NCBI GenBank assembly: GCA_964349465.1
Contig: CAYGGC010000002.1
Span: 28,841-92,840 of the forward strand
Reading direction: 5' to 3'
Length of the DNA stretch: 64,000 bases
Source of the DNA: an uncultured Gammaproteobacteria bacterium
GTDB taxonomy: Bacteria; Patescibacteriota; Patescibacteriia; SBBC01; CAIJZX01
The first letter of the stretch is position 1. Each line of letters starts with the position of its first letter. The notes beneath the pieces were generated by a model. The model was not told the DNA's origin. It ran no database searches and saw only the letters and a list, made by a program, of their open reading frames with translations. Shown here in pieces: positions 24,931-60,198 of the stretch. The position numbers and the translations under genes were made by a program.

Positions 24931-25356
24931 TTACTCCGAAAACGTGCTTTGATGTAAGACCTCTTCAACCTGCTGCTGCAAGTCGTGTGGGTCGAGGTTT
25001 GACTTCACCAAATACCGATCGGCCCCGAGTTTTTTCGCGGTCCGAACATGCTCATCCGAATCAAGGTTAGAAAGAATAATGACTCGCGTCATTGATAACG
25101 ACGGCGTATTTTTTACCAGCCGAAGAATCTCAAAACCCGTGGGCTCGTGATAATTCTCGCCATGGGTGTCACCCTTCGGATGCTTTGGGATCAGGAGGTC
25201 CAAGAGGACCACGTGCGGGCGGTTAACAATGATTTGCTCCTCCCCTGTTTGCGCATCAAGCGCGGCGTTCACTTCGTAACCTGACTTTGTTAACATCAGG
25301 GTATAGAGCGAGGAAATAATTGGTTCGTCTTCGATCAGCAAGATGCGAGTGGCCAT
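24931..25356 (-). CDS. Single-domain response regulator (CheY-like receiver only)
   Basis: MATRILLIEDEPIIS...VLLDLLIP... with the conserved Asp pocket and a lysine (LVKSNLD). There is no output domain. The start is 13 nt after the stop of the kinase gene. Confidence 0.7.
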   Translation of the reverse strand: MATRILLIEDEPIISSLYTLMLTKSGYEVNAALDAQTGEEQIIVNRPHVVLLDLLIPKHPKGDTHGENYHEPTGFEILRLVKNTPSLSMTRVIILSNLDSDEHVRTAKKLGADRYLVKSNLDPHDLQQQVEEVLHQSTFSE

Positions 25357-25369
25357 AGACGTAGGGTAA

Positions 25370-28192
25370 TTATGAACGAGGGCTAACCACGTGCGCAGCC
25401 GCTTGATGCGGATGTGCCTCGGGCGCGTCAGCATGCGGGACCAAGGGTAGAATAAATTGGAAGGTACTCCCCTTTCCTTCACCATCCGACTCGGCCCAAA
25501 TCCGCCCGCCGTGGGCGTCGATAATGGATTTCGCAATAAATAAACCAAGTCCCGATCCATCAGGATGGATTTGGGCGATCCCGCTCCCGCGCACAAACTT
25601 GTTAAACAACTCCGTCGCGTCCTGCGGCTTAATACCAATACCGGTGTCTTTCGCGCGGAAATGAATACGCTCGTCTTCCAGTTCGGCCGTGAGGGTGATT
25701 GAACCTTTATCGGTATATTTGATGGCGTTATCGATCAAATTAAGAATGACATCTTGAATTTTATCGGCGTCAACCATAACTTTCGGCAAGGGTGTTTTTG
25801 GAAGCTTATTGAGAATTTTCAAACCCTTATCGTTCGCCGCTTTCGTTACTTCCTTAATTTCACGCACCACTAAATCTTCAAACTGGACTGGCACTTTTGT
25901 ATATGTGAACTTGCCCGCCTCGATTTTTGAGACGTTTAAGAACTGGTTAATTAAGCGAATCATCCGCTGTGATTCAGCTAATAAATCGGTCAGAATTTTC
26001 AGGTGATCGGGTTTCATCTTCCCGAAATCTCCCTGGGTCATCATCGACAGATAGCCCATAATCCCGGTCATTGGCGTTCGGAGTTGATGGGACGCGATCG
26101 ACACAAATTCTGACTTCGCACGGTCGAGTTCTTGAAGATGCTTGTTCGCAACTTCGAGCTGTCCGTTCGTTTCCTTCAATTGCGAGAAAAGCGTTAAGTT
26201 CCGCGACACAATCCCGAGTTCGTCGGCCATCGATTGCATCGTCGCGATTTCTTGTGGGGTGATGTCGTGGATAGATTTTTGCAAACCGATCTCAATCACC
26301 CCGATGGTCCTTGATTCCGAAATGATCGGTACTAAAACCATCGATTTCAGGCCCATCAGTTTTTGGATACTCGCACATATAATTTTCGGCAGCGGCGGCG
26401 AGAGAACGTCGCTCATCGAGTCCGTGATTTTTATTTCTCCAGTGCGAATAACCTGATGCCCTAAAGAGTTAGAGGCCGGATCCATGATATCGCTGTGGTA
26501 CGTATCAAACCGCAACGGCAATAATCGCATCGCCTTCTTAGTCAGCGGTGTTTCGGTAATTGCGCGCGCCCGAACCGTCCGACCATCTTGGTCGAGGAAG
26601 ACTAGAATCGCGCCCAGATAGCCAAGCTCAGTTGCGACGCTATTGGCGATATTTTGGACGGCTTGGGAGAAATCGAGTGTTCGCGTGACTTCTTTGGTAA
26701 TATTTTGCAGGGTTTGCAACGAGACATTCCGATCTTCGAGCTTCTCGGTCGCTTCCTTTACTTTCACTTTCAAATTTTCACCAAACTCCCGAACTTCTTC
26801 GAAGAGGTTCGCCTTTTGAATCGCTGATCCAATTTGTGGCGACAGCACTTCAATCAAGTTCACGTCATCGTTGGAGAACGTATCCCCAGAGAGTTTAGAC
26901 CCGAGGACAAGTACGGCAATCAAGTGATCTTGCGCGTAGACCGGCGCAATTAAGGCCGCTCCAAGCTTTTCAAATTCTTCTTTCGACGCAAGCAACGGTC
27001 CGCGTAGCTCTTCTTTCGTATCGTCAATTTTCCGCTCAAGCGATTCATAAATGGCCGGATGACGGTGCTCGCGGAGATAATGCACGAGCTGACTCTCGTT
27101 TTGGAGCACCATGTTTGGGTATTTGCCCAAAAGTTCCGGCAAGGCCTCAAACCGATCCGTGCCGCCATGCGAAGTTCGGCGCAGGAGCGTCGCCGCAAAC
27201 TTGATTTTGAGCTCTTGGGTTAGGGTCGTCCGCAGATCGGTAATCAGTTTTGTCTGATCAAGTTCGAAACTGAGGGTTTCGGAAAGTTTGCGGAGAATCG
27301 CTTGATAATCAATCTTTGCCTTGAAAAAGACTTTGTCGGTTGCTCGTGAAAGAAGCCGCTTGAGTGGATCAAGGCCGAAGACGATGAGAGCGGCGACGAG
27401 GAAGGCTATTGAATTTTGACTAACTTGGCTCTTTTCAAAGAAACGCGCGGAGGTAAACGTAATAAAAACGAAAGAGAGTGTGACGAGGGTCAACAGCAAA
27501 CCATAGATTAATGAACGTGTGGCGACTAGACGGATATCTAGTAGCCTATGCCTTACAATTGCGTAACTAACTAATACAACGAGAAAAAGTGTGCCGAGCG
27601 GTCCAAGGGCAACCAGACTACCGATCCCGATTACCGGCAGTAAAATATTAGTAATAATGCCAAAAAGAGCGGTAATTGCGACTCCAGCAAAAACGTACCT
27701 TATCTGTTGCTTAACTAACCCCGAGGAGCTTAAATATTTTCTAATAAAACTGTAAATCGAAAAAATTATTCCTCCAAAGAAATATAGTAAGAAAAAATAG
27801 TACCCTGGCGCATAAGTTAACTTTGCAGGAAAGATTGTGTTATCTACAGATTCAACAAGGTATCCAAAAAAAATAGTTGGCAACAAAACAATAAATCCCA
27901 CTAAAAAAAATACCAATACTGGTTTTCTTGGGTTAACACCAAACGGGAAGAGATAGCTAAAAAAAAGTATAGATGGAATCATTAGTACCGGTCCAAGAAA
28001 AGTCATTTTTGCCCAAAAAAGCGACCTATTCGGATCAAAGTCAACCAAATAGTTAGCAATTGCCCAAATTGCCAAGGATATCGCGAGGGAGAAAAAAGAA
28101 ATATTTATTTTGGATTTGTGATTTCTGTTTAGAATTAAGAATCCTAAAAAAATAATTGAAGCCGAGACAAAAAGAACTGACAATAGGTACAT
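25370..28192 (-). CDS. Sensor histidine kinase with 7TM, GAF, GAF, HisKA and HATPase domains
   Basis: About 220 aa of multi-pass membrane domain, then two GAF-like regions, an H-box (FVSIASHQLRTPMTGIMGY), an N-box (LNLIDNAIKYT) and G-boxes (DTGIGI, GSGLGL). 940 aa. The 5' roughly 500 nt are strongly AT-rich. Confidence 0.8.
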   Translation of the reverse strand: MYLLSVLFVSASIIFLGFLILNRNHKSKINISFFSLAISLAIWAIANYLVDFDPNRSLFWAKMTFLGPVLMIPSILFFSYLFPFGVNPRKPVLVFFLVGFIVLLPTIFFGYLVESVDNTIFPAKLTYAPGYYFFLLYFFGGIIFSIYSFIRKYLSSSGLVKQQIRYVFAGVAITALFGIITNILLPVIGIGSLVALGPLGTLFLVVLVSYAIVRHRLLDIRLVATRSLIYGLLLTLVTLSFVFITFTSARFFEKSQVSQNSIAFLVAALIVFGLDPLKRLLSRATDKVFFKAKIDYQAILRKLSETLSFELDQTKLITDLRTTLTQELKIKFAATLLRRTSHGGTDRFEALPELLGKYPNMVLQNESQLVHYLREHRHPAIYESLERKIDDTKEELRGPLLASKEEFEKLGAALIAPVYAQDHLIAVLVLGSKLSGDTFSNDDVNLIEVLSPQIGSAIQKANLFEEVREFGENLKVKVKEATEKLEDRNVSLQTLQNITKEVTRTLDFSQAVQNIANSVATELGYLGAILVFLDQDGRTVRARAITETPLTKKAMRLLPLRFDTYHSDIMDPASNSLGHQVIRTGEIKITDSMSDVLSPPLPKIICASIQKLMGLKSMVLVPIISESRTIGVIEIGLQKSIHDITPQEIATMQSMADELGIVSRNLTLFSQLKETNGQLEVANKHLQELDRAKSEFVSIASHQLRTPMTGIMGYLSMMTQGDFGKMKPDHLKILTDLLAESQRMIRLINQFLNVSKIEAGKFTYTKVPVQFEDLVVREIKEVTKAANDKGLKILNKLPKTPLPKVMVDADKIQDVILNLIDNAIKYTDKGSITLTAELEDERIHFRAKDTGIGIKPQDATELFNKFVRGSGIAQIHPDGSGLGLFIAKSIIDAHGGRIWAESDGEGKGSTFQFILPLVPHADAPEAHPHQAAAHVVSPRS

Positions 28193-28197
28193 GTAAA

Positions 28198-28503
28198 TTA
28201 TAGTCTGTTAAAAATACGAAAGATGCCAATTATAACGAGTACCAAAAAAATTAAATATACATATGACGGCAGTTTTTTTGCAAAAAAGAAAACATAGATA
28301 TACGGCACTAGGAATACTATGAGAGTTAATCCAGCTCGTACAATAATCTCAAAAGTCGAGACCTTCAGTGCTACCCCCACAACTAGCCAAGCCATTAGAG
28401 CATAGAAAACGGGCCAGGTTCCAAAGTATAGAATTCCAAAAATTCTGCCATCTAGACCATATTTATTGATTTGCTGATTTTTTTTTCGCAAAAAGTCTAA
28501 CAT
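28198..28503 (-). CDS. Small membrane protein, 101 aa, 3 TM helices
   Basis: Hydrophobic ORF lying 2 nt downstream of the acyltransferase stop and 6 nt upstream of the kinase start. About 33% GC. Confidence 0.5.
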   Translation of the reverse strand: MLDFLRKKNQQINKYGLDGRIFGILYFGTWPVFYALMAWLVVGVALKVSTFEIIVRAGLTLIVFLVPYIYVFFFAKKLPSYVYLIFLVLVIIGIFRIFNRL

Positions 28504-28505
28504 GA

Positions 28506-29213
28506 TTAATGCAAAGAATACCTATAATCTTTCCCATGAGGAGAAAGGGAGCCATTAGATAAAAATTTTAATAGTGATCTATTTTTTTCGTACATCTTTT
28601 CTTCAAACTCATTAACATGGATTACATAAGGAGCTGTAATGCCTTGAAATATTTTGGATTTCCCAATGCGTGTAATTGGGATATTAAACTCTTCGAGGTT
28701 CGGTGTTAGCTTATCATCTAAGACGCAGAAAATATTGTTTAAGTGTCTTTCTTTTACCAGCAAATAAATGCCCTTAATTAATACTAGAAGTAGGTGTTTT
28801 CTTCGATAATTTCTTGCGACTATTAATCTAGAAATTTCTGCGACCTGATTTACATCAACTGGTTGAAGACGATAATCAATTTCGAAATTTCTGAGTATGG
28901 GCAATCCATCATCTGAACCGAGAATAAGCCTAGCTGTTGCAGCGAGATCTCCTGAATTATGTCTTACTACAAGATGAATGGAGTGACGATCAAAAATATC
29001 TTGTTCTCTTTTATTTGGGTAATCTCTGTAGTCTAAGTATCTATATTCTTCACAGTAAACTTTGTAACGAATTCTATAAATTTCTTCTAACTCGTCATGC
29101 TCTGAAGTTGTGTAGAAAGTAAAATTTTTATAGACACTTCTTTCTGCTAATCTTAAATTTATCCCCCCAAAGAAAGGACTCTTTACCAATGCTTTCAAAA
29201 AAATGGAGGGCAT
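28506..29213 (-). CDS. GNAT-fold N-acyltransferase of the autoinducer-synthase/N-acyl-amino-acid-synthase/OlsB superfamily
   Basis: RIRYKVYCEEYRYLDYRDYPNKREQDIFDRHSIHLVV matches the LuxI/FeeM block R..VF..E..W.....E.D.FD..S.HLVV. ATARLILGSDDGLPI...AEISRLIV matches the E.SRL.V block. The start at 29213 overlaps the upstream stop as TAATG. Confidence 0.6.
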   Translation of the reverse strand: MPSIFLKALVKSPFFGGINLRLAERSVYKNFTFYTTSEHDELEEIYRIRYKVYCEEYRYLDYRDYPNKREQDIFDRHSIHLVVRHNSGDLAATARLILGSDDGLPILRNFEIDYRLQPVDVNQVAEISRLIVARNYRRKHLLLVLIKGIYLLVKERHLNNIFCVLDDKLTPNLEEFNIPITRIGKSKIFQGITAPYVIHVNEFEEKMYEKNRSLLKFLSNGSLSPHGKDYRYSLH

Positions 29214-29890
29214 TATTTTTTCAAAACAATATAAGTTGTAGTGGCAAACCAAATCACTGAACTAAGAACGCCATAAAGGAAATTTGGAACAAAGTCGGGG
29301 GAAAAAATAGGCCAAATCAGATCGATAAATACCGCGGGCAATCCACCGATGATCACAGACAAAAGGACTAAAAAAACATTTTTGCCGTTTAACCCATCGT
29401 TTCTTTTTGATTGCTTGAATAGCAGTCCTACTGCTAATAAGTAGAGAGAGAGTAAAAGCACATTGTAAAAAGGGAGTAGAGGTCCTGCGACTACCCTCCC
29501 TACGTTTGTTGTAGAGGCAACATAATCCAACTCTATAGTTCGTGTTGTAAGAGCGATTATTGAAAATAGTGCTGCGGGCAAATACATCAATGTTCTATGA
29601 AGTCTATCCAAATGAACTAGCGGAAGTGGAAATACAATGGCCAAATGGACTAGTGACGTAAGTAAAAAAATTCCAAAAACATACACAAAGGAATTGATTA
29701 TGAGAGATGCTTCTAGGCTGTAGGCCAACAAGCCGCTGAAAATCACCCACAACCCCGTACTCAAAGCCAACAACGCCATCACCTTCCGAATTTCACTCTT
29801 CGAGTGCGTCACCCAAAAGAAAATTGCGAGGATTAACTCCCCAATCCCAACAAGGTAGGTGGCTGTAAGTAAAAAGGTTTTCATTTCCAT
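29213..29890 (-). CDS. Stand-alone 7TM membrane protein, paralogue P1 of the kinase sensor domain
   Basis: 225 aa with seven predicted TM helices. It shares MK...ATYLxGxGE..L..FFW.T, FPLP, GGLP and a terminal YIVLKK with P2 and P3. Confidence 0.6.
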   Translation of the reverse strand: MEMKTFLLTATYLVGIGELILAIFFWVTHSKSEIRKVMALLALSTGLWVIFSGLLAYSLEASLIINSFVYVFGIFLLTSLVHLAIVFPLPLVHLDRLHRTLMYLPAALFSIIALTTRTIELDYVASTTNVGRVVAGPLLPFYNVLLLSLYLLAVGLLFKQSKRNDGLNGKNVFLVLLSVIIGGLPAVFIDLIWPIFSPDFVPNFLYGVLSSVIWFATTTYIVLKK

Positions 29891-29891
29891 A

Positions 29892-30566
29892 TTATTTCTT
29901 CAACACAATATAGGAAGTTACGCCAAGCCATACAAGTGTCGCTGAGGTGCCGTACAGAGGATCTTTAGCATACCCCGTAAACAAAGGAATGATCAGGTCA
30001 TTAATGACTCCCGGAAGACCCCCTAGGACAAAGGACAAAGCCACTGGCAGAAGGGTGTGACGATATGTGACATCAGCTTTTCTCAATCGGTATAACAATA
30101 TTCCAATAGCCAGTGTATACAGTGCGATAAGGTATATATTGTAATACTGGAAGAGCGGACCGCCGTGCCAGGCGCCCTGAAATGTTGAGGAGGAAACGTA
30201 ATAATTGAGGACAGTATTCGTTCCAAAAATCTCGAAAGAAAAAATAATGGCCGGGATAAAGAGCAGAAAAATATGAAAGCGATCTATACGAATTATTGGT
30301 AATGGAAAAAGGAGAGAAAAAAGCAAAACGGCGGTTACCATGAAAACTCCAAAGGCGTATGTCAGTCGAGGTAATAGGTTTTGCGCCGTAGCATTTTCAG
30401 TATACGCAGCGCCAACGGTTGAGAGTACCCATGCGCCTGTTACGATCGCAAGGAAACCAAGTATCTTTCGAATAATTTGGTTTCCATTCGTTTTCCAAAA
30501 AAACAATCCGAGGAGAACTTCTCCTAGTCCAATCAGATACGTTGCAATGATTGCGAGTTCTTTCAT
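29892..30566 (-). CDS. Stand-alone 7TM membrane protein, paralogue P2
   Basis: Start MKELAIIATYLIGLGE. It ends SYIVLKK. Its ATG overlaps the P3 stop as ATGA. Confidence 0.6.
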   Translation of the reverse strand: MKELAIIATYLIGLGEVLLGLFFWKTNGNQIIRKILGFLAIVTGAWVLSTVGAAYTENATAQNLLPRLTYAFGVFMVTAVLLFSLLFPLPIIRIDRFHIFLLFIPAIIFSFEIFGTNTVLNYYVSSSTFQGAWHGGPLFQYYNIYLIALYTLAIGILLYRLRKADVTYRHTLLPVALSFVLGGLPGVINDLIIPLFTGYAKDPLYGTSATLVWLGVTSYIVLKK

Positions 30567-31222
30567 TTCTTCACCAAAATATATCCGGTCAAGCACAGCC
30601 AAACCGAGGTAAACAACGATCCAATAAAACCGTATTTCGTGGCCGCATTCAACGGCAAGGCGATATCAAACACCGCCGAAACCACAAGCGAGACCACGAT
30701 ACCGATCGTCACCAGCTGGGTATTTCGACGATGCAACCCGTCGGCCCGCCGCCAGGCGCGCACCAAGTTCACCAACGACCACAGCCAATACAGCCCGAAA
30801 ACGACGATCAGGAGCCAGAACAACTCGCCGGTTGCTGTCGCGTACCCAGGGCCGAAGGCAACAATACTTGAACGAGCGACAAAAATATCGGTCAGCAGGA
30901 GCCCTGGAATGAAGATCGCCGCTGGCCACAGTACCCAGGGAACGAGCTCATGATTTCCCCTCGTCGGTAGAGGGAAGGAAAAGCTAAAGGGTAAGAACAG
31001 CACCGCAGTCATCAATCCCCCGGTCCAAGCCAAGTGCTCGGCGGTGTCGCCACTGATCCACTGTCCAAGATACCCAAGCCCGTTCGCCCCCACATATAGG
31101 GCAACCGCGAAGCAAAACAAGCCATACCACATGGTCGCCTGGTTTTTCTGGTATTTCGTTAGGAACCAAAAGCCCAGCCAAACTTCAGCCAGGGCGATCA
31201 CGATTAACAGCCAGCCAATCAT
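30563..31222 (-). CDS. Stand-alone 7TM membrane protein, paralogue P3 (GC-normal copy)
   Basis: 219 aa. Contains FSFPLP and ends GYILVKK. Its GC is about 55%, unlike P1, P2 and the acyltransferase. Confidence 0.6.
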   Translation of the reverse strand: MIGWLLIVIALAEVWLGFWFLTKYQKNQATMWYGLFCFAVALYVGANGLGYLGQWISGDTAEHLAWTGGLMTAVLFLPFSFSFPLPTRGNHELVPWVLWPAAIFIPGLLLTDIFVARSSIVAFGPGYATATGELFWLLIVVFGLYWLWSLVNLVRAWRRADGLHRRNTQLVTIGIVVSLVVSAVFDIALPLNAATKYGFIGSLFTSVWLCLTGYILVKK

Positions 31223-31422
31223 AGGCTCTGACAGAAAACAAACCCACGGCCAGTGGATTGGGTTTTTTTGCTACCCTGATAAATTGTCGATTTCCCGCGA
31301 GAAAATTCCGTCACGGTGGATGTATAAAAAGTCCACCGCTACTATAGCAGATTTGGTCTAAATGCGCAACTTGATAGCCCTTGTGCTATCAGCCTCGAAA
31401 ATTGCTCCAAGAATTTCCTCTG

Positions 31423-32085
31423 CTACTGAGAAAAGCTAGTGAGGGCTTTCTGCATGTCCGCATCAGAAATATCGGCGGATCCGAAGGAAATGAGATATTT
31501 CGGGGTAATAAAGAGATAGTAATAGCCATACGGCCAAGCATCTGTGTCTCGTTGTACGGTACGAAAAACCTGTTGACCGTTCAGTGTCAGTACATCAGAC
31601 GTGAGCACTCCCCGATCCCACATATACTGATCGAGAATTGTTGCCTGAGATTGGCTATCAAGATTCGTGAGGTTATTATTGTTTGGGTATACCTCAAGTA
31701 CAATTTCATCACTTGGGTTAGGATTAAATCCTACCAATGTATCTCGATTGCGTTCAATCCCCGTATTCAAATTCTGCCGACTAAATCTAGCCGCATACGC
31801 AGCCTTTTCTCCGCCGGGAAAATGCGTCATCGAAAAACTCTTATCAAGTTCCAACGAAAAACCATATTTCTCGCTAACATATTTTGTATACCCCGGTAAA
31901 CTTTCAACTGTTGACGTTTTAAGATCTTTTTCGGAACCCCATACTTTTTGTGTAGTCGTATTACTCGTAGTGTTACTATGTAACGATTTGTCTGTGGTTT
32001 TTGCCGTTTGCCGCGTAAACACAAAAACGAACAGAGCAATACAAAGAGTAGCTCCAATGGTTGCAAGGTAAATTATTTTTTTCAT
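31423..32085 (-). CDS. Membrane-anchored secreted protein, Ser/Thr/Asn-rich linker
   Basis: N-terminal TM/signal anchor (IIYLATIGATLCIALFVFVF). No recognised domain. Translationally coupled to the gene upstream. Confidence 0.5.
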   Translation of the reverse strand: MKKIIYLATIGATLCIALFVFVFTRQTAKTTDKSLHSNTTSNTTTQKVWGSEKDLKTSTVESLPGYTKYVSEKYGFSLELDKSFSMTHFPGGEKAAYAARFSRQNLNTGIERNRDTLVGFNPNPSDEIVLEVYPNNNNLTNLDSQSQATILDQYMWDRGVLTSDVLTLNGQQVFRTVQRDTDAWPYGYYYLFITPKYLISFGSADISDADMQKALTSFSQ

Positions 32086-32777
32086 TGTCCGTCCCCCATC
32101 ATTAATCGAACGATCGCGTCGAATGTATTTCTGTACATTGAAACCCGTAGCTCAACACCATCGGACTGATTATACCAGCTCCCAAGTAAAGAATATGCCG
32201 ACCCGTCAGATAGAGTTACCTTACAGACTCGGTCGAATTTAGTGTTAAAGCAGCTAATCGTTCGATTATTCTTGCTACCATAGATTTCGTCAGAAGTCAC
32301 TTGATCTTGTATAAAGGACAGGGGTAAAAAAATTGTAGTGTATGCAGGTGGTGTAGGCACAGTCTCGCCATCTGCTGGTATCTTTTGAACTACAAACACT
32401 GGCGCGTCATTGAGGCCTTCGCATTGCGTAACGCCTTCCATAAGGTAGACAGTGTCCTCATCCAGAGACGAGGGGCAGGCAAAGAAGGAGGTCGAGTATT
32501 TAAAACAAATTGAATCATTCACGCAGTATTTCCGGAAGCCTTTTGTGTCAGGAGTGGAAAAAGAGTTTTCATAAGGGATTTGCTTACCCGACGCTATGAC
32601 GGCTGGACCACGTTCGCGCTGATCAGTTGTGTTGATATTATTGAACGACTCGACATTTTTGTCAGACGATACATTATTAGTTAAATGTGTCTCTTCTTTT
32701 TGGGATAACAAAATTCCACCGGTGATGGTTATCAATAATAGAAGTAATCCGATAGGGATATAAGTGTTTGCTTTCAT
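32082..32777 (-). CDS. Membrane-anchored, Cys-rich secreted protein
   Basis: N-terminal anchor (IPIGLLLLLITITGGILL). Ten Cys in the extracytoplasmic part. No recognised domain. Confidence 0.5.
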   Translation of the reverse strand: MKANTYIPIGLLLLLITITGGILLSQKEETHLTNNVSSDKNVESFNNINTTDQRERGPAVIASGKQIPYENSFSTPDTKGFRKYCVNDSICFKYSTSFFACPSSLDEDTVYLMEGVTQCEGLNDAPVFVVQKIPADGETVPTPPAYTTIFLPLSFIQDQVTSDEIYGSKNNRTISCFNTKFDRVCKVTLSDGSAYSLLGSWYNQSDGVELRVSMYRNTFDAIVRLMMGDGQ

Positions 32778-32802
32778 ACCGAATGAATGAGAATAGAGTT
32801 GT

Positions 32803-32849
32803 TATTGAAAAAATTACCGGGTACAAGAGTATAGTACCCTTGTACCCGG
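32803..32849 (-). terminator. Intrinsic terminator 3' of the CHAP lipoprotein gene
   Basis: On the minus strand, CCGGGTACAAG-ggtactatact-CTTGTACCCGG is an 11-bp stem followed by TAATTTTTTC. Confidence 0.55.
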
Positions 32850-32863
32850 CGACTGTGAAGGCG

Positions 32864-33649
32864 TCAGTATCCGAGGTTCAAAGCCCTGTAATTCGCCAGG
32901 TTGCCCACTCCGGACCCGGACGTCACGGCGATGACATGCATCCCGATTTCCTCGTCGCCGATGAAGTTCGAGTCGACGACAACCACCTTCCGAACCGAGG
33001 ACCCGGCGGCACCTTCCACGATACCGACTACGATGGCCGTGTGGCCGTTGACCGTATTCGTTTCGATGACGTCACCGACACGAATCTGGTAGTACGGTCT
33101 GGCCGAGCCGCCGTAGGCCGGAAGCTTACTATTCCGAACACCCGCGCGGTACAGGATCAGTGCCGCAAAACTCCGGCACTGCCCGCCGTGGGAACGAACC
33201 GTGCCGGTGTTCTGTCCGGAGCGATTCAAGCTCGTCCATGAGTAGACGTCCATGTTCGAGTAATAGCTCGGCCACCCGGTCCAGAGGGAAGCGTTAACCC
33301 CGTACCAGTCATTGCCCTTGATGACATTGTGAGCATTCGGGTCGCTCAGTAGATACGCCCAGTTACTGCGCTGGACCGTTCCATCCGCCGACAACTGCCA
33401 GTACATATAGCCCCAGTTCTGACGGAGCGCGTAGTAGCACTCGTACTGAATGGCGATACGGTTGTCGGGATGCAGTCGACTCGGCTCCACGCCCGGCTTC
33501 CCGATCCGGCCCGACATCGTGTCGGCCGGCGAAATGGTCTGCTCAGTCGTGATCGACGGCTGCACGGGGTTATCCTTCCCGCAGCTCGTCAGCGTCATCG
33601 GCACCAGTGCCAGCGCAAGCGCCAGCCCCACCACCAGAAACTTCTTCAT
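32864..33649 (-). CDS. Lipoprotein with a C-terminal CHAP-like (Cys/His amidase/peptidase) domain, CHAP-1
   Basis: The start at 33649 (MKKFLVVGLALALALVPMTLTSC, lipobox LTSC) has AGGAAG 8 nt upstream. The catalytic-looking region is GGQCRSFAALILYRAG...GDVIE...GHTAIVVG. Confidence 0.6.
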   Translation of the reverse strand: MKKFLVVGLALALALVPMTLTSCGKDNPVQPSITTEQTISPADTMSGRIGKPGVEPSRLHPDNRIAIQYECYYALRQNWGYMYWQLSADGTVQRSNWAYLLSDPNAHNVIKGNDWYGVNASLWTGWPSYYSNMDVYSWTSLNRSGQNTGTVRSHGGQCRSFAALILYRAGVRNSKLPAYGGSARPYYQIRVGDVIETNTVNGHTAIVVGIVEGAAGSSVRKVVVVDSNFIGDEEIGMHVIAVTSGSGVGNLANYRALNLGY

Positions 33650-34068
33650 TGCACACTTCCTGTTCTGCTCCATGACGGAGCTAGAGGGTTTGGTCGCTGA
33701 GGATCACCTCCTCAGGTGTTCTTGATGAGCTACCGTGAAACGGGCGACGAACTGCCGTTCTGGATCACCTCCCTTCCCTCGCACCAGTTGTTGAATTTGA
33801 GTGCTGAGGTTTTTGAATTGTAATGTGCGTCACGAACCATGATGGTCTTTTTTTGGCGTACACAAAGCACGACTATCAACGCCCACTTTCTGCGTTGAGC
33901 CGTCAGTCCTCACCAAGCATGGTGATATGCCACAGCACCAACTACTCACGAGTGGTGCTGGGCAAGCAAAAACCAGCGGCCCAACTCTCGACACTTTGTC
34001 AGGTTAACAACGTATGAACGTTGTCAGCCCGAGCGAAGTCGAGGGCCAAGCCACTGGTTCGTATGTTC

Positions 34069-34096
34069 ATTGTACTTGACGGAATAGCTGCGTCAA
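34069..34096 (-). promoter_or_regulatory. Promoter plus conserved leader, copy A (drives the long 5'UTR of CHAP-1)
   Basis: On the minus strand, TTGACG, a 16-nt spacer, then TACAAT. The transcript begins with GAACATACGAACCAGTGGCTTGG, which is conserved with copies B and C. Confidence 0.5.
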
Positions 34097-34109
34097 GTGG
34101 AAAACTTGT

Positions 34110-34730
34110 TTATTGTACTACTGCTGATTTGACCACCTTATCTAAAATAGCCATCACATCGCCTCTTCCCTGATTGTATTCAATTTCTACCGTTGGGCGA
34201 TGATCAGAATACCAATAGGTCATCGAGTAACCCACATTGGTCGTCACTTCGATATAGCGCCACTGCTGTTCATGGATTTGCTCGCTACCTTCACGAACAA
34301 TACGTTGACCTGCGGGAAGAGTGGCTTTTATCGACTGAACGAGTTCGACCGCTGAATCAAATTCGTGCTGCATGAACAGTAAACTCGGACTGTCTGGGTA
34401 GCTCACCGGAAATGACCAAGACACCGCGCCTGCCCCTTCGGACTTCGTCATATTTTTTGGGATGGCAAAAGTAAATCCACTATACGGGAAATCTTGCGTG
34501 TCGACCGCCTGAGCAACGACTGTATCCCACGCTCGACTTACATCTGTAGATACATTACCGTTTGCATTGCTGTTTTTTTGTTTCGTGTTCGTCACTGGAG
34601 TATAAAAATTTTTCAATCCAAACCAAACGCCACCTCCGATGACAATAAGCGCGACGATGACCATGAAATTTTTCATACGTAATTGACCAATGATACAAAT
34701 AAAAAAGAAAATAGGGAACAGAGAAATCAT
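34110..34730 (-). CDS. Membrane-anchored secreted protein
   Basis: The start at 34730 has GAGGGGAG 7 nt upstream. An internal MKNFMVIVALIVIGGG start is also possible. No recognised domain. Confidence 0.5.
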   Translation of the reverse strand: MISLFPIFFFICIIGQLRMKNFMVIVALIVIGGGVWFGLKNFYTPVTNTKQKNSNANGNVSTDVSRAWDTVVAQAVDTQDFPYSGFTFAIPKNMTKSEGAGAVSWSFPVSYPDSPSLLFMQHEFDSAVELVQSIKATLPAGQRIVREGSEQIHEQQWRYIEVTTNVGYSMTYWYSDHRPTVEIEYNQGRGDVMAILDKVVKSAVVQ

Positions 34731-34761
34731 ACTCTGCTCCCCTCTTTATGAGAAGGCGCCA

Positions 34762-35658
34762 TCAGTACCAGATACCCGCGCCAGAGACACAACGCCACTT
34801 CGTACCGTTGATCTGGGCGTTGGTCACATAGTGCCGGCCGATCGTCTCATACGCCAGGTAATTGGAATCGCCCACTGTCATCCCGCCACTATCCTTCGTG
34901 ACGCAGACACCAATATGCTGATTCCCGGTCCCGTTGTTGTAGTAGACTATGTCACCTACCTGAGCGCTCAGGGCTGACTGATCGCTGGTAGACGTGTGAG
35001 CCGCCCAGCTCCAGTTTAGTTTGTAACTGCCCCCGGTCGCTCGGTAGAGCAACATAGCCACAAACGCGACGCACTGCGTCCCGCGACCATAACCACCTCT
35101 CATCGCGTAACTATCGGCACTGAGATAGTTAACCCAGTACTCGACCGTGTTCTGCGGCGATGCCATCAGCCCCGGCTTGTCGATACGGCAACAGTTGCAG
35201 ACCGGCGGAATGTCATCCGAGACGCAGGTCTGGAAGGTGTTGAGCGCATAGCGGAGGCCGTTTGCATTCGCATCCGCCGCCGTCGACAACCAGTTCCAGT
35301 TCGACTTCGGACCTGAAGGGCCGACGGTATCGTCCGGCTTAGTCAACCAGGAACGGTTCAGCGAGTACCAGAACTCGTTCCGCACAAAGTACCGTCTCGA
35401 GCCGATCGAGTACGGCTGCATCGACGACTTCCGCAGGGCAGCTGCGGTCGACTCCGCACGAGTGGTGGTGTACGTCAGCGGCGTGAGACCCCGGTAGATC
35501 GACTTGACCGCACCCCAGCTCGTCCGGAGAACTTCATGCTGCAGCGTGGCATTGGCAGCGTAGTCTGGAGTCTGGTCAGTTCCAGCAACGGCTGGTTTCA
35601 CCCACACTGACATAGTTGCCAGCACGATGAGCGACAGGACCATCATCAGCTTTTTCAT
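34762..35658 (-). CDS. Secreted CHAP-like domain protein, CHAP-2 (paralogue of CHAP-1)
   Basis: Signal peptide MKKLMMVLSLIVLATMSVWVKPAVAG. The Cys/His region is GTQCVAFVAMLLYRATG...GDIVYY...QHIGVCV. Confidence 0.6.
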   Translation of the reverse strand: MKKLMMVLSLIVLATMSVWVKPAVAGTDQTPDYAANATLQHEVLRTSWGAVKSIYRGLTPLTYTTTRAESTAAALRKSSMQPYSIGSRRYFVRNEFWYSLNRSWLTKPDDTVGPSGPKSNWNWLSTAADANANGLRYALNTFQTCVSDDIPPVCNCCRIDKPGLMASPQNTVEYWVNYLSADSYAMRGGYGRGTQCVAFVAMLLYRATGGSYKLNWSWAAHTSTSDQSALSAQVGDIVYYNNGTGNQHIGVCVTKDSGGMTVGDSNYLAYETIGRHYVTNAQINGTKWRCVSGAGIWY

Positions 35659-35950
35659 TGCCGATTTCCATTTCTGCTCGAAGAACGAGCAAAGAGTTTT
35701 TGAGATGAGACAATCTCATCTCGATGTGACCATCACGTCTATTCCCACGGTACTACAACCTCGAACGCCTCCTTTTTGGATTGGAATGAACAACCCGAAC
35801 CAGGTTTGTCGTAACTCAAGCACATAAAACAAGCGGTTCAAGCCGCGGTTTTCTCACCTGTGTGGTTTACGAAAAACCAGCAGCTCGACGCTGAACTGTT
35901 CTCCCCTGTTTCGGAGAGAGTTCAGAACCAAGCCACTGATTCGTACATGT

Positions 35951-35978
35951 ATTTTACTCCGGTAAAAAGTAATGTCAA
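35951..35978 (-). promoter_or_regulatory. Promoter plus conserved leader, copy B (about 285-nt 5'UTR of CHAP-2)
   Basis: On the minus strand, TTGACA, a 16-nt spacer, then TAAAAT. The transcript begins with ACATGTACGAATCAGTGGCTTGG. Confidence 0.5.
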
Positions 35979-36318
35979 GTGCATAAAATCGAGCTTGTCC
36001 CGAGATCCTGAGTTTGTCGAAGGGCGAGGGATCAAGTGGATAAGTACATACCTACCCTCTCCCCATCGCCCGATCCACTGATCCCGATAGACAAAGTATT
36101 GGTGGTTCCCGATACTTAGTAAAAAGTAGCGGATTCCTGGGACCAATGTGCTGGTACGACGGAGAGGGGGCAGCCCCGCACCGTCCGACCTCCCCTTTGA
36201 CCCTCCCCCTACGAGGAGGGATCGGAATGGTCGAGCCAATTTCTTGGCGGACGGTGCGGCGGACTATTCGTTACCGAGATGCTTCGCGCCTCTCTCCGGC
36301 GCTCAGCATGGAAAACGA

Positions 36319-36732
36319 CTAGTCGTTTTCCACCTCATCAACGTCAACATCCTCTTTCACGAGTTTCGTGTTCACTGAATCCCCGCCCTTCGCCTTGGTA
36401 GTTCGATGGCCAAGCATAATCATATTATCAGCGACAATTTCCTTGACACTCCGTTTTCCACCATCGCGGGTCACATACTTACGCGTCGCCAAACGACCCT
36501 CAACATAGATCTTGCTTCCCTTTTTGACGTACTGACGAACAATATCGCCAAGCTTGCCCCAAGCAATGACGTCATGGAAGTCGACGGCCTCTCGCTTCGC
36601 TTTCGTTTTCGCGTCTTGCCAGGCGTAATTCGTCGCCAAGCTAAACCGAGTAATCTGCTGACCTGATGGCAGCGTTTTCCCTTCTGGATCGCGAACCATG
36701 TTCCCGATCAACGTGACCTTGTTGAGGTCCAT
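36319..36732 (-). CDS. ssb: Single-stranded DNA-binding protein
   Basis: OB-fold N-terminus (MDLNKVTLIGNMVRDPE...TRFSLATN...HDVIAWGKL). The acidic tail ends EDVDVDEVEND rather than the canonical DDDIPF. The stop codon sits in the loop of a perfect 10-bp palindrome. Confidence 0.8.
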   Translation of the reverse strand: MDLNKVTLIGNMVRDPEGKTLPSGQQITRFSLATNYAWQDAKTKAKREAVDFHDVIAWGKLGDIVRQYVKKGSKIYVEGRLATRKYVTRDGGKRSVKEIVADNMIMLGHRTTKAKGGDSVNTKLVKEDVDVDEVEND

Positions 36733-36894
36733 ACAAAAATCCTTTCTTGCCCCGCGCCGATACGGCGCGGTGGCTTATCCAGCACTTCAATCCTGAGCTA
36801 GCCGAAGGATTGTGGTGCTGGGCGCCAAGCCCGCGATCTGTCTTCGTCCCCGCCCACCAATCGCGCGGAGATGAGGACGGATTTTTTGCCTCGC

Positions 36895-37374: not shown

Positions 37375-37445
37375 AGAGTATATTGACATACTATCAGACG
37401 TTCACGCTTGATCCTGTCAAACAAGTGCGTCTGAAATCGAAACGA

Positions 37446-37841
37446 CTACGCTACAAGATTGCAAATGATAAATGGGAAATCAGGTTCCCAAACTTGAACT
37501 ACTGTAAAGGAAATGCCTGCAACGATAATTACTATCAGAAGTATCAGTCGTAAATATTTTGGCAAAGGCTTTCGCAAGCCACTTGCCCAGACCAGGAGAG
37601 AAATAAGAATCAGTAAAAAAGTACTAGACACAAACACGCTCATAAAATTTGCCAGGCCTGGCGCAGTAATGGTTTTGCAGATCTTTTGAATAGCTACCGG
37701 ATCGCCATTTGTCACTGCAAGACTTTGTTGAATTTCTGGGTGTTGTTGTGCATACCCATCGTATGAAAATGCTGAAAGCAATAGCCCCAGCGTGCTCATT
37801 GTGAGTATTGGGAGAACAATAGCATGAAGTTTTTTTATCAT
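37446..37841 (-). CDS. Membrane protein (hypothetical), 131 aa
   Basis: An N-terminal signal/anchor and two further TM segments. AT-rich. Confidence 0.45.
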   Translation of the reverse strand: MIKKLHAIVLPILTMSTLGLLLSAFSYDGYAQQHPEIQQSLAVTNGDPVAIQKICKTITAPGLANFMSVFVSSTFLLILISLLVWASGLRKPLPKYLRLILLIVIIVAGISFTVVQVWEPDFPFIICNLVA

Positions 37842-37897: not shown

Positions 37898-37908
37898 TTC
37901 CTCCATTA

Positions 37909-59616: not shown

Positions 59617-60198
59617 TTAGATTTCGTATTTGTACTTTTTATCACTACTGCCGCCACGGATCAGAATCATCGATACAATCGGCGCGACAATCCAGAAGAA
59701 ACGTGCGTTATCCTGAGCGAAAAGTCGCTGGGTAATTGGCGCCAAATTCGCCGTCGCGGAATCGGGTAAAAACGAGAGCGTGATCGAGACCAATAACCCA
59801 ACATGCAAAAAACTAAAGAGAAGAACTTGCCACCAGGAACCGGCGCTATCCGATTTTGCCACGGTCGCCAATAAAGCTGAGCGTGACATCAAGAAGAAGA
59901 GGGCGACAAAAACGACAACAAAGGTCGAAACCCGAACGACAAAAAACTGATTGACGCCCACGTCGGCCGTAAAGCTCCCGATATACGGCGCAAAGTTTAC
60001 GACCGCCAGCGCCATATAGACCGAAATCAGAATCGTAATAACTCGATCACGTCCTAGGCTAAGTCCATATAACAACGCGGCCACCACGAAAAATAGGATA
60101 ATAAACAAATCCCAGCTGGGCTGGGCCCAGTTGATGTTCGCCACGAAGCTTTTTGCTTCGGTCGTGGTTTGGGTCAGGTTGACCGCCAAAAGTGGCAT
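59617..60198 (-). CDS. Multi-pass membrane protein (hypothetical), 193 aa
   Basis: Five or six predicted TM helices. The ORF ends KKYKYEI. Confidence 0.5.
   Translation of the reverse strand: MPLLAVNLTQTTTEAKSFVANINWAQPSWDLFIILFFVVAALLYGLSLGRDRVITILISVYMALAVVNFAPYIGSFTADVGVNQFFVVRVSTFVVVFVALFFLMSRSALLATVAKSDSAGSWWQVLLFSFLHVGLLVSITLSFLPDSATANLAPITQRLFAQDNARFFWIVAPIVSMILIRGGSSDKKYKYEI

Follow-up and report, generated by a model that had tools for sequence, protein, structure and literature searches.

In staphylococcal agr (agrBDCA), a membrane sensor kinase shares one operon with the ligand-making genes, and the hypervariable region of the alleles spans agrB, agrD, and agrC, covering signal production together with the membrane sensor at the N-terminus of the kinase; the core of the kinase and the regulator are conserved, and signal and receptor variants are paired (PMC10482373). 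Similarly, in Bacillus subtilis comQXPA (and streptococcal comCDE) the enzyme, the signal gene, and the 5' membrane part of the kinase gene are co-polymorphic, whereas the 3' part and the regulator are conserved (PMC4408185, PMC4008528), and ComP varies much more in its N-terminal membrane domain than in its cytoplasmic one (PMC4008528). Moreover, the TIGR03694-type synthase family is described, as Craig et al. (2011) are cited in PMC7293339, as adjoining exosortase loci, which also contain a transmembrane kinase of unknown stimulus (PMC1569441), and O-antigen and capsule loci have an AT-rich and diverse middle that is exchanged via conserved flanks and is devoid of mobile-element hallmarks (PMC5303225 for the lower GC of accessory genes).

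The window (i.e., the whole 64,000-nt stretch of DNA analyzed, from a Candidatus Kerfeldbacteria (Patescibacteria) genome) harbored an operon in the order P3-P2-P1-acyltransferase-TM101-kinase-receiver, whose histidine-kinase gene contains a compositional breakpoint, probably the seam left by recurrent recombination in a modular locus with a swappable enzyme cassette and sensor. Like comQXPA, the operon has its breakpoint within the gene for the kinase; the com loci, too, are probably poorer in G+C in their variable region. Like agr, it combines a membrane sensor kinase with putative ligand-making genes, its variability takes in these genes and the N-terminal membrane sensor but leaves the kinase core and the regulator conserved, and the variants on both sides are paired. 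Features of pherotype-type loci were thereby found, namely a co-operonic kinase and regulator (the signal role of the enzymes being assumed), a hypervariable span, and cassette-receptor covariation.

The differences from the described systems are nevertheless substantial. Unlike agr, the locus encodes small-molecule enzymes instead of a peptide precursor and an AgrB-type protease, the sensor is a HisKA_7TM bundle rather than the AgrC fold and is followed by two GAF domains and a HisKA-type kinase, the receiver has no LytTR output domain, and, compared with the four agr groups, at least 31 sensor types occur in 46 orthologues and differ between species-level lineages. Unlike comQXPA, with its isoprenylated peptide and its alleles of one gene, the presumed signal is an amino-acid derivative, the sensor fold and the phylum are different, and one type differs from another in the enzyme family itself (synthase, decarboxylase, aminotransferase, and others). 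Searches of the operon with Pfam and NCBIfam detected none of the AgrD/AgrB, ComX/ComQ, or ComC/ComAB families, and its sole short ORF was TM101; thus, the locus is no member of agr, comQXPA, or comCDE, and the resemblance is one of logic only. With exosortase (PEP-CTERM) loci it shares an acyltransferase that passes the TIGR03694 cut-off and the Pfam FeeM model; however, PrsK was absent from the best 25 NCBIfam matches of the kinase, the best of which were generic kinase cores, the regulator is a bare REC receiver and not a sigma-54 activator, and the synthase is swapped for unrelated enzymes in relatives. The general layout is also that of O-antigen and capsule loci, except that one flank is intragenic, resulting in a chimeric protein, and that the cargo consists of a sensor and small-molecule enzymes, not glycosyltransferases.

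Table 1. Features of the operon and of the kinase gene (window coordinates)
Feature	Coordinates	Strand	Evidence and composition
P3, stand-alone HisKA_7TM protein, 219 aa	30563..31222	-	PF16927 33.8 (cut-off 28.6); GC/GC3 0.54/0.68
P2, stand-alone HisKA_7TM paralogue, 224 aa (ATG at 30566)	29892..30566	-	PF16927 30.4; GC/GC3 0.43/0.41
P1, stand-alone HisKA_7TM paralogue, 225 aa	29213..29890	-	PF16927 35.4; GC/GC3 0.40/0.42 (z = -4.4)
N-acyl amino acid synthase of FeeM type, 235 aa with GNAT fold (ATG at 29213), variable cassette	28506..29213	-	Pfam and TIGR03694; GC/GC3 0.33/0.27
TM101, orphan small membrane protein, 101 aa, variable cassette	28198..28503	-	GC/GC3 0.34/0.32
Histidine kinase, 940 aa	25370..28192	-	HisKA_7TM, GAF, HisKA, HATPase_c
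Kinase codons 1-214, exchangeable 7TM sensor module	27551..28192	-	HisKA_7TM residues 7-220, 49.7 bits; GC3 0.34
GC3 change-point support interval (mosaic seam)	27403..27553	-	Codons 213-263, 2-logL; best estimate between 27500 and 27499
Kinase codons 215-288, TM8-TM9, RHRLLDIRLV motif, transition zone	27329..27550	-	Intermediate conservation and GC; GC3 0.44
Kinase conserved core: GAF, coiled coil, GAF, HisKA (DHp), HATPase_c	25370..27328	-	Pfam matches; limits from AF2 model
Receiver-domain response regulator, stand-alone, 141 aa, last operon gene	24931..25356	-	Pfam Response_reg

The genes from P3 to the receiver are a single tightly coupled operon (Table 1), with junctions that overlap or leave gaps of 1-13 nt, including the ATGA overlap of the P3 stop and the P2 start (30563-30566) and a receiver start 13 nt past the kinase stop, and with a terminator-like hairpin and T-run after the receiver stop. 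P3, the first gene, forms the GC-rich and conserved left flank of the variable zone, and its identity to relatives follows that of the kinase core (71% with L016, 61% with L018, and 56% with L003). At the other end, the receiver shared 82% identity with its L016 counterpart. P3 and the kinase core rank the relatives alike, whereas the cassette and the N-module of the kinase do not. P1 and P2 are low in GC (GC3 of P2 0.41 against 0.545 expected, z = -4.2), yet their orthologues are kept in relatives, among which the copy number of HisKA_7TM paralogues ranges from 1 to 4. P1 shared 65% identity with L003 and 49% with L016, although the latter is closer by core, and it therefore departs from the core phylogeny, which it fits only loosely. 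The acyltransferase scored above the cut-offs of Acetyltransf_5 (52.0 vs. 22.4), FeeM (41.3 vs. 27), and TIGR03694 (126.8 vs. 111.95), and its matches to solved AHL synthases were weak (E = 0.2-0.8). It was present in some relatives (L003, L004, and L025, 64-70% identity), with other enzymes in its place elsewhere. TM101 matched no Pfam or NCBIfam family and had no homologue in the ~100 fetched loci save the identical contigs L001 and L002.

The kinase is a HisKA_7TM kinase according to its scores for PF16927 (49.7 vs. a cut-off of 28.6), HisKA (61.8), and HATPase_c (89.7), and the whole ORF was modelled by AF2 as one folded protein. In this model, seven helices occupy residues 2-213 with a pLDDT of 80-94, followed by TM8 and TM9 at residues 218-251 and 256-288. 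Codons 215-288, the transition zone, were 45-90% identical to the closest relatives, and across them the nucleotide identity to L015 climbed from ~55% to ~75%.

Within this gene, GC fell from ~0.50 to ~0.32 over positions 27400-27850. In 300-nt windows, GC was 0.49-0.52 across 26050-27400, 0.447 at 27250-27549, 0.433 at 27400-27699, 0.380 at 27550-27849, and 0.30-0.36 between 27700 and 29350, rising to 0.39-0.44 up to ~30550 and to 0.54-0.57 at 30550-31150. Accordingly, GC/GC3 was 0.35/0.34 in kinase codons 1-200, 0.43/0.44 in codons 201-300, and 0.49/0.56 from codon 301 to the end, and maximum likelihood placed the GC3 change point after codon 231 (position 27499), with a logLR of 18.9, the highest value among 500 permutations being 10.2. 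Amino-acid composition accounted for 0.074 of the 0.168 drop in GC (~44%), the GC expected from the amino acids being 0.404 for codons 1-150 vs. 0.478 for the core. The breakpoint is real and no amino-acid artefact, as codons 1-150 had a GC3 of 0.307 against 0.514 predicted from native codon usage (z = -5.4), compared with 0.56 against 0.52 in the kinase core (dN/dS of 0.017 vs. L015). Moreover, the most AT-rich gene was the soluble acyltransferase (GC3 0.27 vs. 0.49 expected, z = -7.2), and the hydrophobic controls were not AT-rich in GC3, with 0.59 in a native gene (59617..60198) and 0.68 in P3. Since P3 is a 7TM paralogue in the same operon, membrane-protein codon choice is excluded as the cause. 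The low-GC block as a whole had a GC3 of 0.27-0.42 vs. 0.50-0.60 in native genes, and positions 27500-30562 deviated from background in dinucleotide delta* (160 vs. 47 +/- 21) and in the correlation of tetranucleotide usage (0.29 vs. 0.87 +/- 0.05).

These results confirm the GC fall that the earlier note had placed at 27400-27750, an interval that contains the whole change-point support range, and the uniform GC3 and tetranucleotide signature with hydrophobic bias alone, which would have spoken against it, was not observed. That note had put the seam at the boundary between the sensor and cytoplasmic domains; it does lie near the end of the sensor, but at residue ~214, ~70 residues before the membrane exit. 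Here it coincides with a low-confidence hinge (residues 216-221, pLDDT < 50 in the AF2 model) between the 7TM bundle and TM8, with a conservation step at residue ~200, and with the C-terminal end of each stand-alone paralogue, where ...YIVLKK aligns to the kinase ...SYAIVRHR. Likewise, the edges of a low-GC block ending at the P2/P3 junction fit the comparative picture, but atypical composition does not stop there, as a patchwork of genes with very high and low GC3 extends past P3 to ~38-40 kb.

To the two sides of the seam correspond different relationships. Over residues 301-940 the kinase was 93-98% identical to its closest relative (P0002, locus L015), whereas identity dropped to 10-34% over residues 1-150 and to 10-38% over the N-module (codons 1-214). 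Across 46 orthologous kinases, similarity in the N-module (here residues 1-200) was uncorrelated with similarity in the core (Mantel r = -0.004, p = 0.52), in contrast to the control with two halves of the core (r = 0.87, p = 5e-4), and the nearest neighbour by N-module was the nearest by core in 0/46 cases, vs. 24/46 in the control. At 40% identity, the 46 N-modules fell into 31 types. Nearly identical cores carried dissimilar N-modules in P0001 (the window kinase) and P0002 (96% core, 27% N-module), P0019 and P0022 (95% and 27%), and P0039 and P0041 (93% and 29%); in contrast, P0016 and P0034 shared 65% of the N-module and 62% of the core, and P0012 and P0040 57% and 56%, respectively. Neighbour-joining trees conflicted reciprocally: the groups (P0001,P0002), (P0001,P0002,P0003), (P0019,P0022), and (P0010,P0016) received 100% bootstrap from the core but 0% from the N-module, and the reverse (N-module 100%, core 0%) held for (P0002,P0022), (P0003,P0004,P0007), (P0013,P0016,P0034,P0036), (P0012,P0040), and (P0021,P0031), with the P0002 N-module 53% identical to that of the core-distant P0022. 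As the core clade (P0001,P0002,P0003) holds two N-types that cannot both be ancestral, at least one N-module was transferred horizontally. The conflict supports the view that the kinase is a mosaic gene with a sensor end of different history, and it bears out the suggestion of a mosaic made from the window alone; the synteny comparison proposed with it likewise found relatives with different N-types on a conserved core.

The exchangeable part is not limited to the kinase. Directly upstream of the kinase gene, each locus carries a cassette of 1 to 4 genes for amino-acid-modifying enzymes, which in relatives include ThiF-type adenylating enzymes, SAM methyltransferases, aminotransferases, GNATs, a Glu/Leu/Phe/Val-type dehydrogenase, a nitroreductase-like protein, and a pyruvoyl histidine decarboxylase (HDC). 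Loci with the same cassette had similar N-modules, i.e., 46-55% in three HDC loci, 44-46% in the FeeM+ThiF loci (including L025, for which this was predicted before examination), and 64% in the Aminotran_1_2 loci L020 and L021. All seven pairs with N-modules at or above 40% identity had the same cassette type and none of the 144 different-cassette pairs reached this level, with the pairs being phylogenetically non-independent, so that a Fisher p-value for them overstates the case. In addition, GC3 of the N-module correlated with that of the cassette (r = 0.81, mean difference 0.04), the core being 0.27 higher, and was lower than core GC3 in 16/16 orthologues (Wilcoxon p = 3e-5). The N-module and the cassette are therefore one compositional unit, and ~1.7-1.9 kb, comprising the enzyme cassette and kinase codons 1 to ~214-280, is replaced between the window and its relatives.

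An exchange of this unit is the probable explanation, and other readings were weighed against it. It is unlikely that only the upstream enzymes were gained and lost while a resident 7TM module diverged fast under relaxed or positive selection, with a local AT bias lowering its GC3. Evolution is generally faster in membrane sensor domains than in catalytic cores (PMC4008528, for ComP), and domain-specific constraint would also yield a sharp step at a domain boundary. Synonymous sites were saturated even vs. the closest relative (dS ~1.6), and at this dS the N-module dN of 0.79 needs a dN/dS of only ~0.5, so that in-situ divergence after a cassette switch is possible for the lineage of the window itself. 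However, such divergence does not account for the trees, in which P0002 and P0003 belong to one core clade with P0001 at 100% bootstrap and yet group by N-module, also at 100%, with P0022 and with P0004 and P0007, respectively. It also gives no reason why the synonymous sites of codons 1-214 should match the cassette rather than the remainder of their own gene, and the high GC3 of P3, a 7TM protein of the same operon, again speaks against membrane-protein codon choice as the cause.

A one-off import, in which a single low-GC fragment of 2.9 kb replaced the kinase 5' end and the upstream genes in this genome only and is still unameliorated, is improbable and is largely refuted by the family-wide pattern. 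The block does look foreign in GC3, delta*, and tetranucleotide usage, close relatives are lacking for both the N-module and TM101, and the two closest core relatives bear different N-types. Nevertheless, the low-GC3 N-module with its upstream block and the intragenic seam recurred in all 16 orthologous loci with DNA, regardless of host GC (core GC3 from 0.30 to 0.83), indicating that AT-richness is a standing property of the exchangeable part and not the result of a one-off import. Given the saturation of synonymous sites between lineages, the low GC3 requires maintenance or continual re-import and cannot be the fading trace of one event. P1 and P2 also lie inside the block and have orthologues in relatives. 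No donor lineage was traceable for the N-module among 1.84 billion representatives, where its best matches had 35-42% identity and none exceeded 42%. The only contigs found of the same species were L001 and L002, both identical to the window; the next relative was at dS ~1.6, and a scan of metagenomes detected nothing closer than 74%. Furthermore, no integrase or recombinase family was found among the operon proteins, the sole tRNA (Gln, 45714-45785) does not adjoin the block, and repeats in 25000-33000 were short and at chance level, leaving the block without a flanking repeat. By the hallmarks checked (integrase, repeats, and adjacent tRNA), the block is not an integrase-mediated mobile genomic island, and the single foreign import favoured in the earlier note is not supported.

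An artefact, be it AT-richness from hydrophobic amino acids alone, which do lower the expected GC of codons 1-150, or mis-assembly of two organisms in what is a metagenome-assembled genome, is highly improbable and was rejected on the codon-usage test and the controls above, and on the identical join in assemblies made independently (L001 from ENA, L002 from Logan, and a 116,871-nt contig from NCBI) with an intact ORF, a single modelled fold, and the same seam in 16 orthologues.

For the modular, recurrently recombined locus, the following mechanism may be proposed. The conserved flanks, P3 on one side and the kinase from ~residue 215 with the receiver on the other, would be inherited with the genome, and the AT-rich middle, i.e., the cassette enzyme genes and the first ~214 kinase codons with the whole 7TM bundle, would be swapped as a unit by homologous recombination in these flanks, with one crossover in, or right after, the hinge past TM7. 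AT-richness marks the exchangeable part in all lineages, likely because this part belongs to a common pool of accessory genes whose alleles may be too divergent for ordinary allelic recombination and GC-biased repair. As background, GC is lower in accessory than in core genes (PMC5303225), and bacterial recombination is associated with higher GC (PMC4450053). Functionally, the cassette enzymes may produce or convert a small molecule that derives from amino acids, is probably soluble in membranes, and would be recognized by the co-inherited 7TM module, with TM8-TM9 and the GAF domains presumably relaying the signal from the 7TM bundle to the kinase, and the kinase to the receiver. A joint swap of cassette and sensor would then alter specificity and keep the output wiring. 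By analogy, the reading favoured here is a pair of signal synthesis and sensor diversifying like agr and comQXP, but the covariation would be equally compatible with a kinase that responds to a substrate consumed by the cassette enzymes. N-acyl amino acid synthases require an activated acyl donor, and Patescibacteria are generally reported to lack fatty-acid synthesis, which makes the donor for the synthase of the window uncertain.

The present results may have implications beyond this genome. An intragenic GC3 step can locate a recombination seam at a protein-domain boundary, providing a cheap screen for modular receptors in metagenomes, and AT-richness that persists over host core GC3 values of 0.30-0.83 offers a clean natural test of the AT-richness of accessory DNA. 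In the literature searched, HisKA_7TM has no known ligand and is hardly mentioned, and its strict covariation with amino-acid-modifying enzymes provides testable ligand candidates, i.e., N-acyl amino acids here and amines (from the pyruvoyl decarboxylase) in relatives. Most CPR bacteria are uncultured and next to nothing is known of how they signal, and the literature searched contained no description of a comparable CPR signalling system. A conserved locus with such extreme paired diversification of enzyme and sensor would be a strong candidate for kin or host discrimination. More tentatively, Kerfeldbacteria and possibly other Patescibacteria might possess a locus for cell-cell or host-symbiont signalling, in which a 7TM receptor and the enzymes for its ligand are swapped as a cassette to give at least 31 private dialects among the 46 orthologues, with the stand-alone 7TM proteins as accessory receptors or transporters. 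If true, this would be a small-molecule analogue of the peptide pherotype systems in a phylum without described quorum sensing, and the uncharacterised HisKA_7TM domain would gain a ligand class.

The genes from P3, a stand-alone HisKA_7TM paralogue, to the receiver-only response regulator are separated by tight junctions (ATGA, TAA-T-ATG, TAATG, 2 nt, 5 nt, and 13 nt), and a hairpin with a T-run lies 3' of the receiver gene, indicating that they constitute one operon. Per-kb GC averaged 0.50-0.57 across the window but sank to 0.34-0.43 between 27 and 30 kb. In 300-nt windows, GC was 0.49-0.52 up to 27400, descended via 0.447, 0.433, and 0.380 to 0.30-0.36 over 27700-29350, rose to 0.39-0.44 after 29350, and then leapt to 0.54-0.57 at 30550. 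The right-hand step falls within one ORF, that of the kinase, in which GC3 was 0.25-0.38 in codons 1-150, 0.38-0.50 in codons 150-300, and mostly 0.50-0.63 after codon 300, apart from a shallow dip to 0.47-0.50 around codons 720-800. By likelihood, the change point of the GC3 series fell after codon 231 (27499), with a 2-logL support interval of codons 213-263 (27403-27553) and a log-likelihood ratio of 18.9, versus a maximum of 10.2 in 500 permutations. The GC drop that the earlier note had described at 27400-27750 inside the kinase gene was thus borne out in both position and description.

Features of the operon, of the adjoining region, and of related loci (L numbers)
Feature	Coordinates	Strand	Annotation
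Receiver-only response regulator, 141 aa	24931..25356	-	downstream of kinase
Kinase, 940 aa	25370..28192	-	Pfam HisKA_7TM (residues 7-220), two GAF regions, HisKA, HATPase_c
TM101, membrane protein, 101 aa	28198..28503	-	no Pfam or NCBIfam family
Acyltransferase	28506..29213	-	Pfam FeeM, Acetyltransf_5; NCBIfam TIGR03694, 126.8 bits (cut-off 111.95)
P1, stand-alone HisKA_7TM protein	29213..29890	-	
P2, stand-alone HisKA_7TM protein	29892..30566	-	
P3, stand-alone HisKA_7TM protein	30563..31222	-	
ORFs past P3	31423..32777		GC3 0.38-0.43
Terminator-like hairpin	32816-32850	-	16 pairs and T-run
ORF past P3	32864..33673		GC3 0.78
ORF past P3	34762..35658		GC3 0.73; CHAP/NlpC-P60 domain
ORF past P3	37446..37841		GC3 0.35
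ORF past P3	37909..38424		GC3 0.78
ORFs past P3	39058..40262		GC3 0.41-0.46
Membrane ORF (114 aa) and SAM-methyltransferase ORF	39413-40262	-	sub-threshold 7TMR-DISM_7TM match in membrane ORF, 21.7 bits (cut-off 29)
Native hydrophobic control gene	59617..60198		GC3 0.59
L016, second slot	13049-15899		radical SAM enzyme, 35-aa ORF, MFS transporter
L022, second slot	3349-5601		YcaO-nitroreductase fusion
L018, second slot	8851-10314		Glu-tRNA synthetase
L005, second slot	6253-11331		1692-aa ORF
L011, second slot	13188-14294		radical-SAM-like ORF
L006, orphan fragment	15064-15330		64% identity to kinase residues 851-939
L011, split kinase	9977-11833, 12219-12809		two ORFs

An AlphaFold2 model of the kinase built on 46 orthologues (mean pLDDT 81.8) comprised seven membrane helices (residues 2-213), a low-confidence hinge (216-221), and two long helices (218-251 and 256-288), followed after residue 288 by GAF, coiled coil, GAF, DHp, and catalytic domains in turn. 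The C-termini of the stand-alone 7TM proteins (...YIVLKK) align with the kinase (...SYAIVRHR) at residue ~214. Because the change point matches the hinge in the model, the GC3 step lies just past the 7TM bundle, ~70 residues short of the membrane exit; the seam placed earlier at the sensor/cytoplasmic boundary therefore stands as to the interval 27400-27750 and moves, within the protein, to the post-7TM hinge. When the full-length model was compared by fold with PDB structures, the kinase core alone found matches and the 7TM module none.

Mis-assembly was excluded, as the seam recurs throughout the family and the junction is identical in separate assemblies: the exact kinase protein occurs with the same neighbours on one ENA contig and one Logan contig, and a 116,871-nt NCBI contig encodes it as well. 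Hydrophobic amino-acid bias accounts for part of the step: with 25 native genes of the window as codon-usage reference, ~0.074 of the 0.168 GC difference was attributable to amino-acid composition. Codons 1-150 had an observed GC of 0.322 versus 0.404 predicted from their amino acids and a GC3 of 0.307 versus 0.514 (z = -5.4), while codons 291-940 had observed GC/GC3 of 0.490/0.557 versus 0.478/0.523 predicted. Moreover, the most AT-rich gene encodes the soluble acyltransferase (GC3 0.27, z = -7.2), and P3, a 7TM paralogue of the same operon, has a GC3 of 0.68. These GC3 z-scores, together with P3 and the native membrane-gene control, rule out such bias as the sole cause. Compared with the remainder of the window, 27500-30562 had a GC-normalised dinucleotide distance (delta*) of 160 (background windows, 47 +/- 21) and a tetranucleotide-usage correlation of 0.29 versus 0.87 +/- 0.05, so that the GC3, dinucleotide, and tetranucleotide signatures all depart across this stretch and are not uniform.

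Atypical composition was also observed past P3, where 31400-40300 is a patchwork of high- and low-GC3 ORFs, most without a Pfam family, with delta* of 80-140 until ~38 kb. The strong terminator-like hairpin lies just past the stop of the GC-rich ORF 32864..33673 and divides it from the low-GC ORFs downstream, and the 114-aa membrane ORF overlaps the end of the SAM-methyltransferase ORF, both being low-GC.

In a scan of one genome per species, full-length relatives of the kinase at 39-60% identity were found in MAGs that carry the label Candidatus Kerfeldbacteria or Patescibacteria group. GC profiles of 10 related loci all had the trough, which takes in the 5' ~600 nt of the kinase gene and the 2-3 kb ahead of it. 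In all 16 orthologous kinase genes with DNA, the GC3 of codons 1-200 was below that of codons 301-end (mean gap 0.31, range 0.13-0.53; Wilcoxon p = 3e-5), across hosts with core GC3 of 0.30-0.83. Low GC is therefore a trait of this part of the locus throughout the group and not a recent quirk of the window genome, and the single foreign 2.9-kb import proposed earlier was not supported. Within a genome, the GC3 of the sensor end (N-module) follows that of the cassette, i.e., the enzyme and small-membrane-protein genes between the stand-alone 7TM genes and the kinase (r = 0.81, mean difference 0.04); its mean difference from the remainder of its own gene was 0.27.

A search of 5.8 billion proteins yielded 64 kinase orthologues. 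The closest relative, P0002 (locus L015), shares 93-98% identity with the window kinase (P0001) over residues 301-940, 72% over 251-300, 60% over 201-250, 38% over 151-200, and 10-34% over 1-150. At the DNA level, identity was ~83% over the 3' two-thirds of the gene, 75% at 27413-27294, and 51-61% at 27593-27414, and the sequences were unalignable 5' of ~27600. An identity step at residue ~200 recurs in six further close kinase pairs. Among all pairs of 46 full-length orthologues, the identities of residues 1-200 and 301-920 were uncorrelated (Mantel r = -0.004, p = 0.52), whereas the two core halves, as a control, gave r = 0.87 (p = 5e-4). The nearest relative by N-module was the nearest by core in 0/46 cases (control, 24/46), and 31 N-module types were distinguished at a 40% threshold. 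Neighbour-joining trees of core and N-module were in reciprocal conflict: bootstrap support was 100% by core but 0% by N-module for (P0001,P0002), (P0001-3), (P0019,P0022), and (P0010,P0016), and the reverse for (P0002,P0022), (P0003,P0004,P0007), (P0013,P0016,P0034,P0036), (P0012,P0040), and (P0021,P0031). The seam lies at a domain hinge, and its two sides have independent histories.

Divergence of the N-module in place, without exchange, is possible on rate alone. The cores of the window and L015 kinases differ by dS ~1.6 (dN 0.026, dN/dS 0.017; Nei-Gojobori), indicating that the two lineages are old, and a relaxed module could diverge over such a separation (dN 0.79 for codons 1-200). However, the N-type of P0002 is shared with the distant P0022, and that of P0003 with P0004 and P0007; only one ancestral N-type is possible for P0001, P0002, and P0003, so that at least one N-module must have been transferred, which is the main argument against divergence purely in place. 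The case for exchange rests on tree conflict, covariation, and composition, and rate forms no part of it. For the gene family, the mosaic gene suggested by the earlier note is supported, and for this genome it is so as far as its two closest relatives each bear a different module; the kinase core does occur with other N-terminal modules in relatives, P0002 among them.

The layout was constant in every relative with context: the kinase is preceded by one to four genes of low GC3, and these in turn by an array of one to four stand-alone 7TM genes. The cassette genes vary by genome and encode FeeM-type synthases, ThiF-family enzymes, SAM methyltransferases, class I/II and class IV aminotransferases, a Glu/Leu/Phe/Val-type dehydrogenase, a nitroreductase-like protein, a pyruvoyl histidine decarboxylase (PF02329), GNATs, and unannotated membrane proteins. 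In the window, TM101 is an orphan between acyltransferase and kinase with no homologue in ~100 related loci, and unrelated small membrane proteins occupy the comparable slot of other cassettes (154 aa in L003, 160 aa in L023, and 164 aa in L010).

Similar N-modules go with the same cassette across loci: HDC in L016, L018, and L019 (N-module identity 46-55%), FeeM+ThiF in L004 and L007 (46%), and Aminotran_1_2 in L020 and L021 (64%). For L025, a FeeM+ThiF locus from a later metagenome scan, an N-module match to L004 and L007 was predicted in advance and was found (45% and 44%, respectively, and <=32% to all other loci). An N-module identity of >=40% implied a shared cassette type in 7/7 pairs, and 40% was not reached in any of the 144 pairs whose cassettes differ (nominal Fisher p 1e-10, indicative only, as the pairs are not independent). 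The cassette and the sensor module are inherited jointly and share their composition, between conserved flanks.

Regarding the edges of the block, P3 is GC-rich and its identity follows the core ranking (L016 71%, L018 61%, L003 56%), P1 departs from it (L003 65%, L016 49%), and no P2 orthologue was found in L016, so that the low-GC zone (~27500-30563) corresponds to the operon's flexible part. Against the nearest relatives, complete replacement is confined to the cassette and codons 1 to ~214-280, roughly 27350/27550 to 29213. The ~2.9-kb block ending at the P2/P3 junction hence corresponds to the flexible zone, but only this shorter piece is fully replaced.

A second variable slot, empty in the window, lies between the kinase and receiver genes of relatives; its radical SAM and YcaO genes look like peptide-modification (RiPP) genes, the radical-SAM-like ORF of L011 being judged solely by a CxxxCxxC-like motif near its start. 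The orphan kinase fragment of L006, 2.3 kb downstream of an intact kinase, and the split kinase of L011 may be left over from earlier rearrangement of the locus or may reflect an error of assembly or a spurious frameshift.

Other sources of new modules found no support. Repeats, a tRNA, and a recombinase, the hallmarks of site-specific or mobile-element insertion, were looked for at the locus and none was found. A role of the stand-alone 7TM paralogues as silent gene-conversion donors was not supported, their best identity to any kinase N-module being 35% (36 paralogues). CPR genomes are rich in diversity-generating retroelements, but such an element does not fit variation that spans the entire 200-residue module with indels as well as the upstream enzyme families. 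Donor tracing by exhaustive HMMER search with the N-module gave 4395 matches, none above 42% identity; a word-index search, a method insensitive to hydrophobic membrane segments, gave zero matches to the 230-aa N-module and missed even the protein from which it came. Neither the genome scan nor the metagenome scan contained relatives close enough for strain-level breakpoints. The best exhaustive-search matches to the window 7TM module (P0121-P0133, ~1080-1090 aa) each matched it in two stretches, the better at residues ~260-495, and seem, by their sequences, to be kinases in which two 7TM modules stand in tandem.

Replacement probably proceeds by homologous recombination within the conserved flanks, as at other hypervariable loci. 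The AT-richness probably reflects membership of the accessory gene pool, GC being lower in accessory than in core genes (PMC5303225), and may in addition arise because the module escapes allelic recombination and, with it, GC-biased repair (PMC4450053). At the sequence level, the acyltransferase is assigned as a FeeM/TIGR03694 N-acyl amino acid synthase; such synthases are described as adjoining PEP-CTERM/exosortase systems (Craig et al. 2011, as cited in PMC7293339), which have the PrsK/PrsR pair (PMC1569441). We hypothesize that a small molecule derived from an amino acid is produced or converted by the cassette enzymes and would be recognised in the membrane by the paired 7TM bundle; joint exchange of cassette and sensor would then alter specificity and keep the GAF-kinase-receiver output. 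That the kinase instead senses a substrate later consumed by the cassette enzymes fits the same data.

The variable region of comQXP is lower in G+C. The same logic is known from agr, whose hypervariable region covers agrB, agrD, and the part of agrC that encodes the sensor (PMC10482373), and from the comQXPA polymorphism, in which ComP varies in its membrane domain and is conserved in its cytoplasmic domain (PMC4008528, PMC4408185). However, the window locus has no peptide precursor and no processing enzyme and differs in sensor fold, kinase architecture, and regulator, and is therefore not a member of these families. In the literature searched, HisKA_7TM was mentioned in two surveys only, and no description of such a locus in Patescibacteria was found. 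The phenomenon, seen here in a CPR lineage, is pherotype-like in that a sensor module and the enzymes encoded beside it diversify as a pair, with small-molecule chemistry and unusually high diversity.
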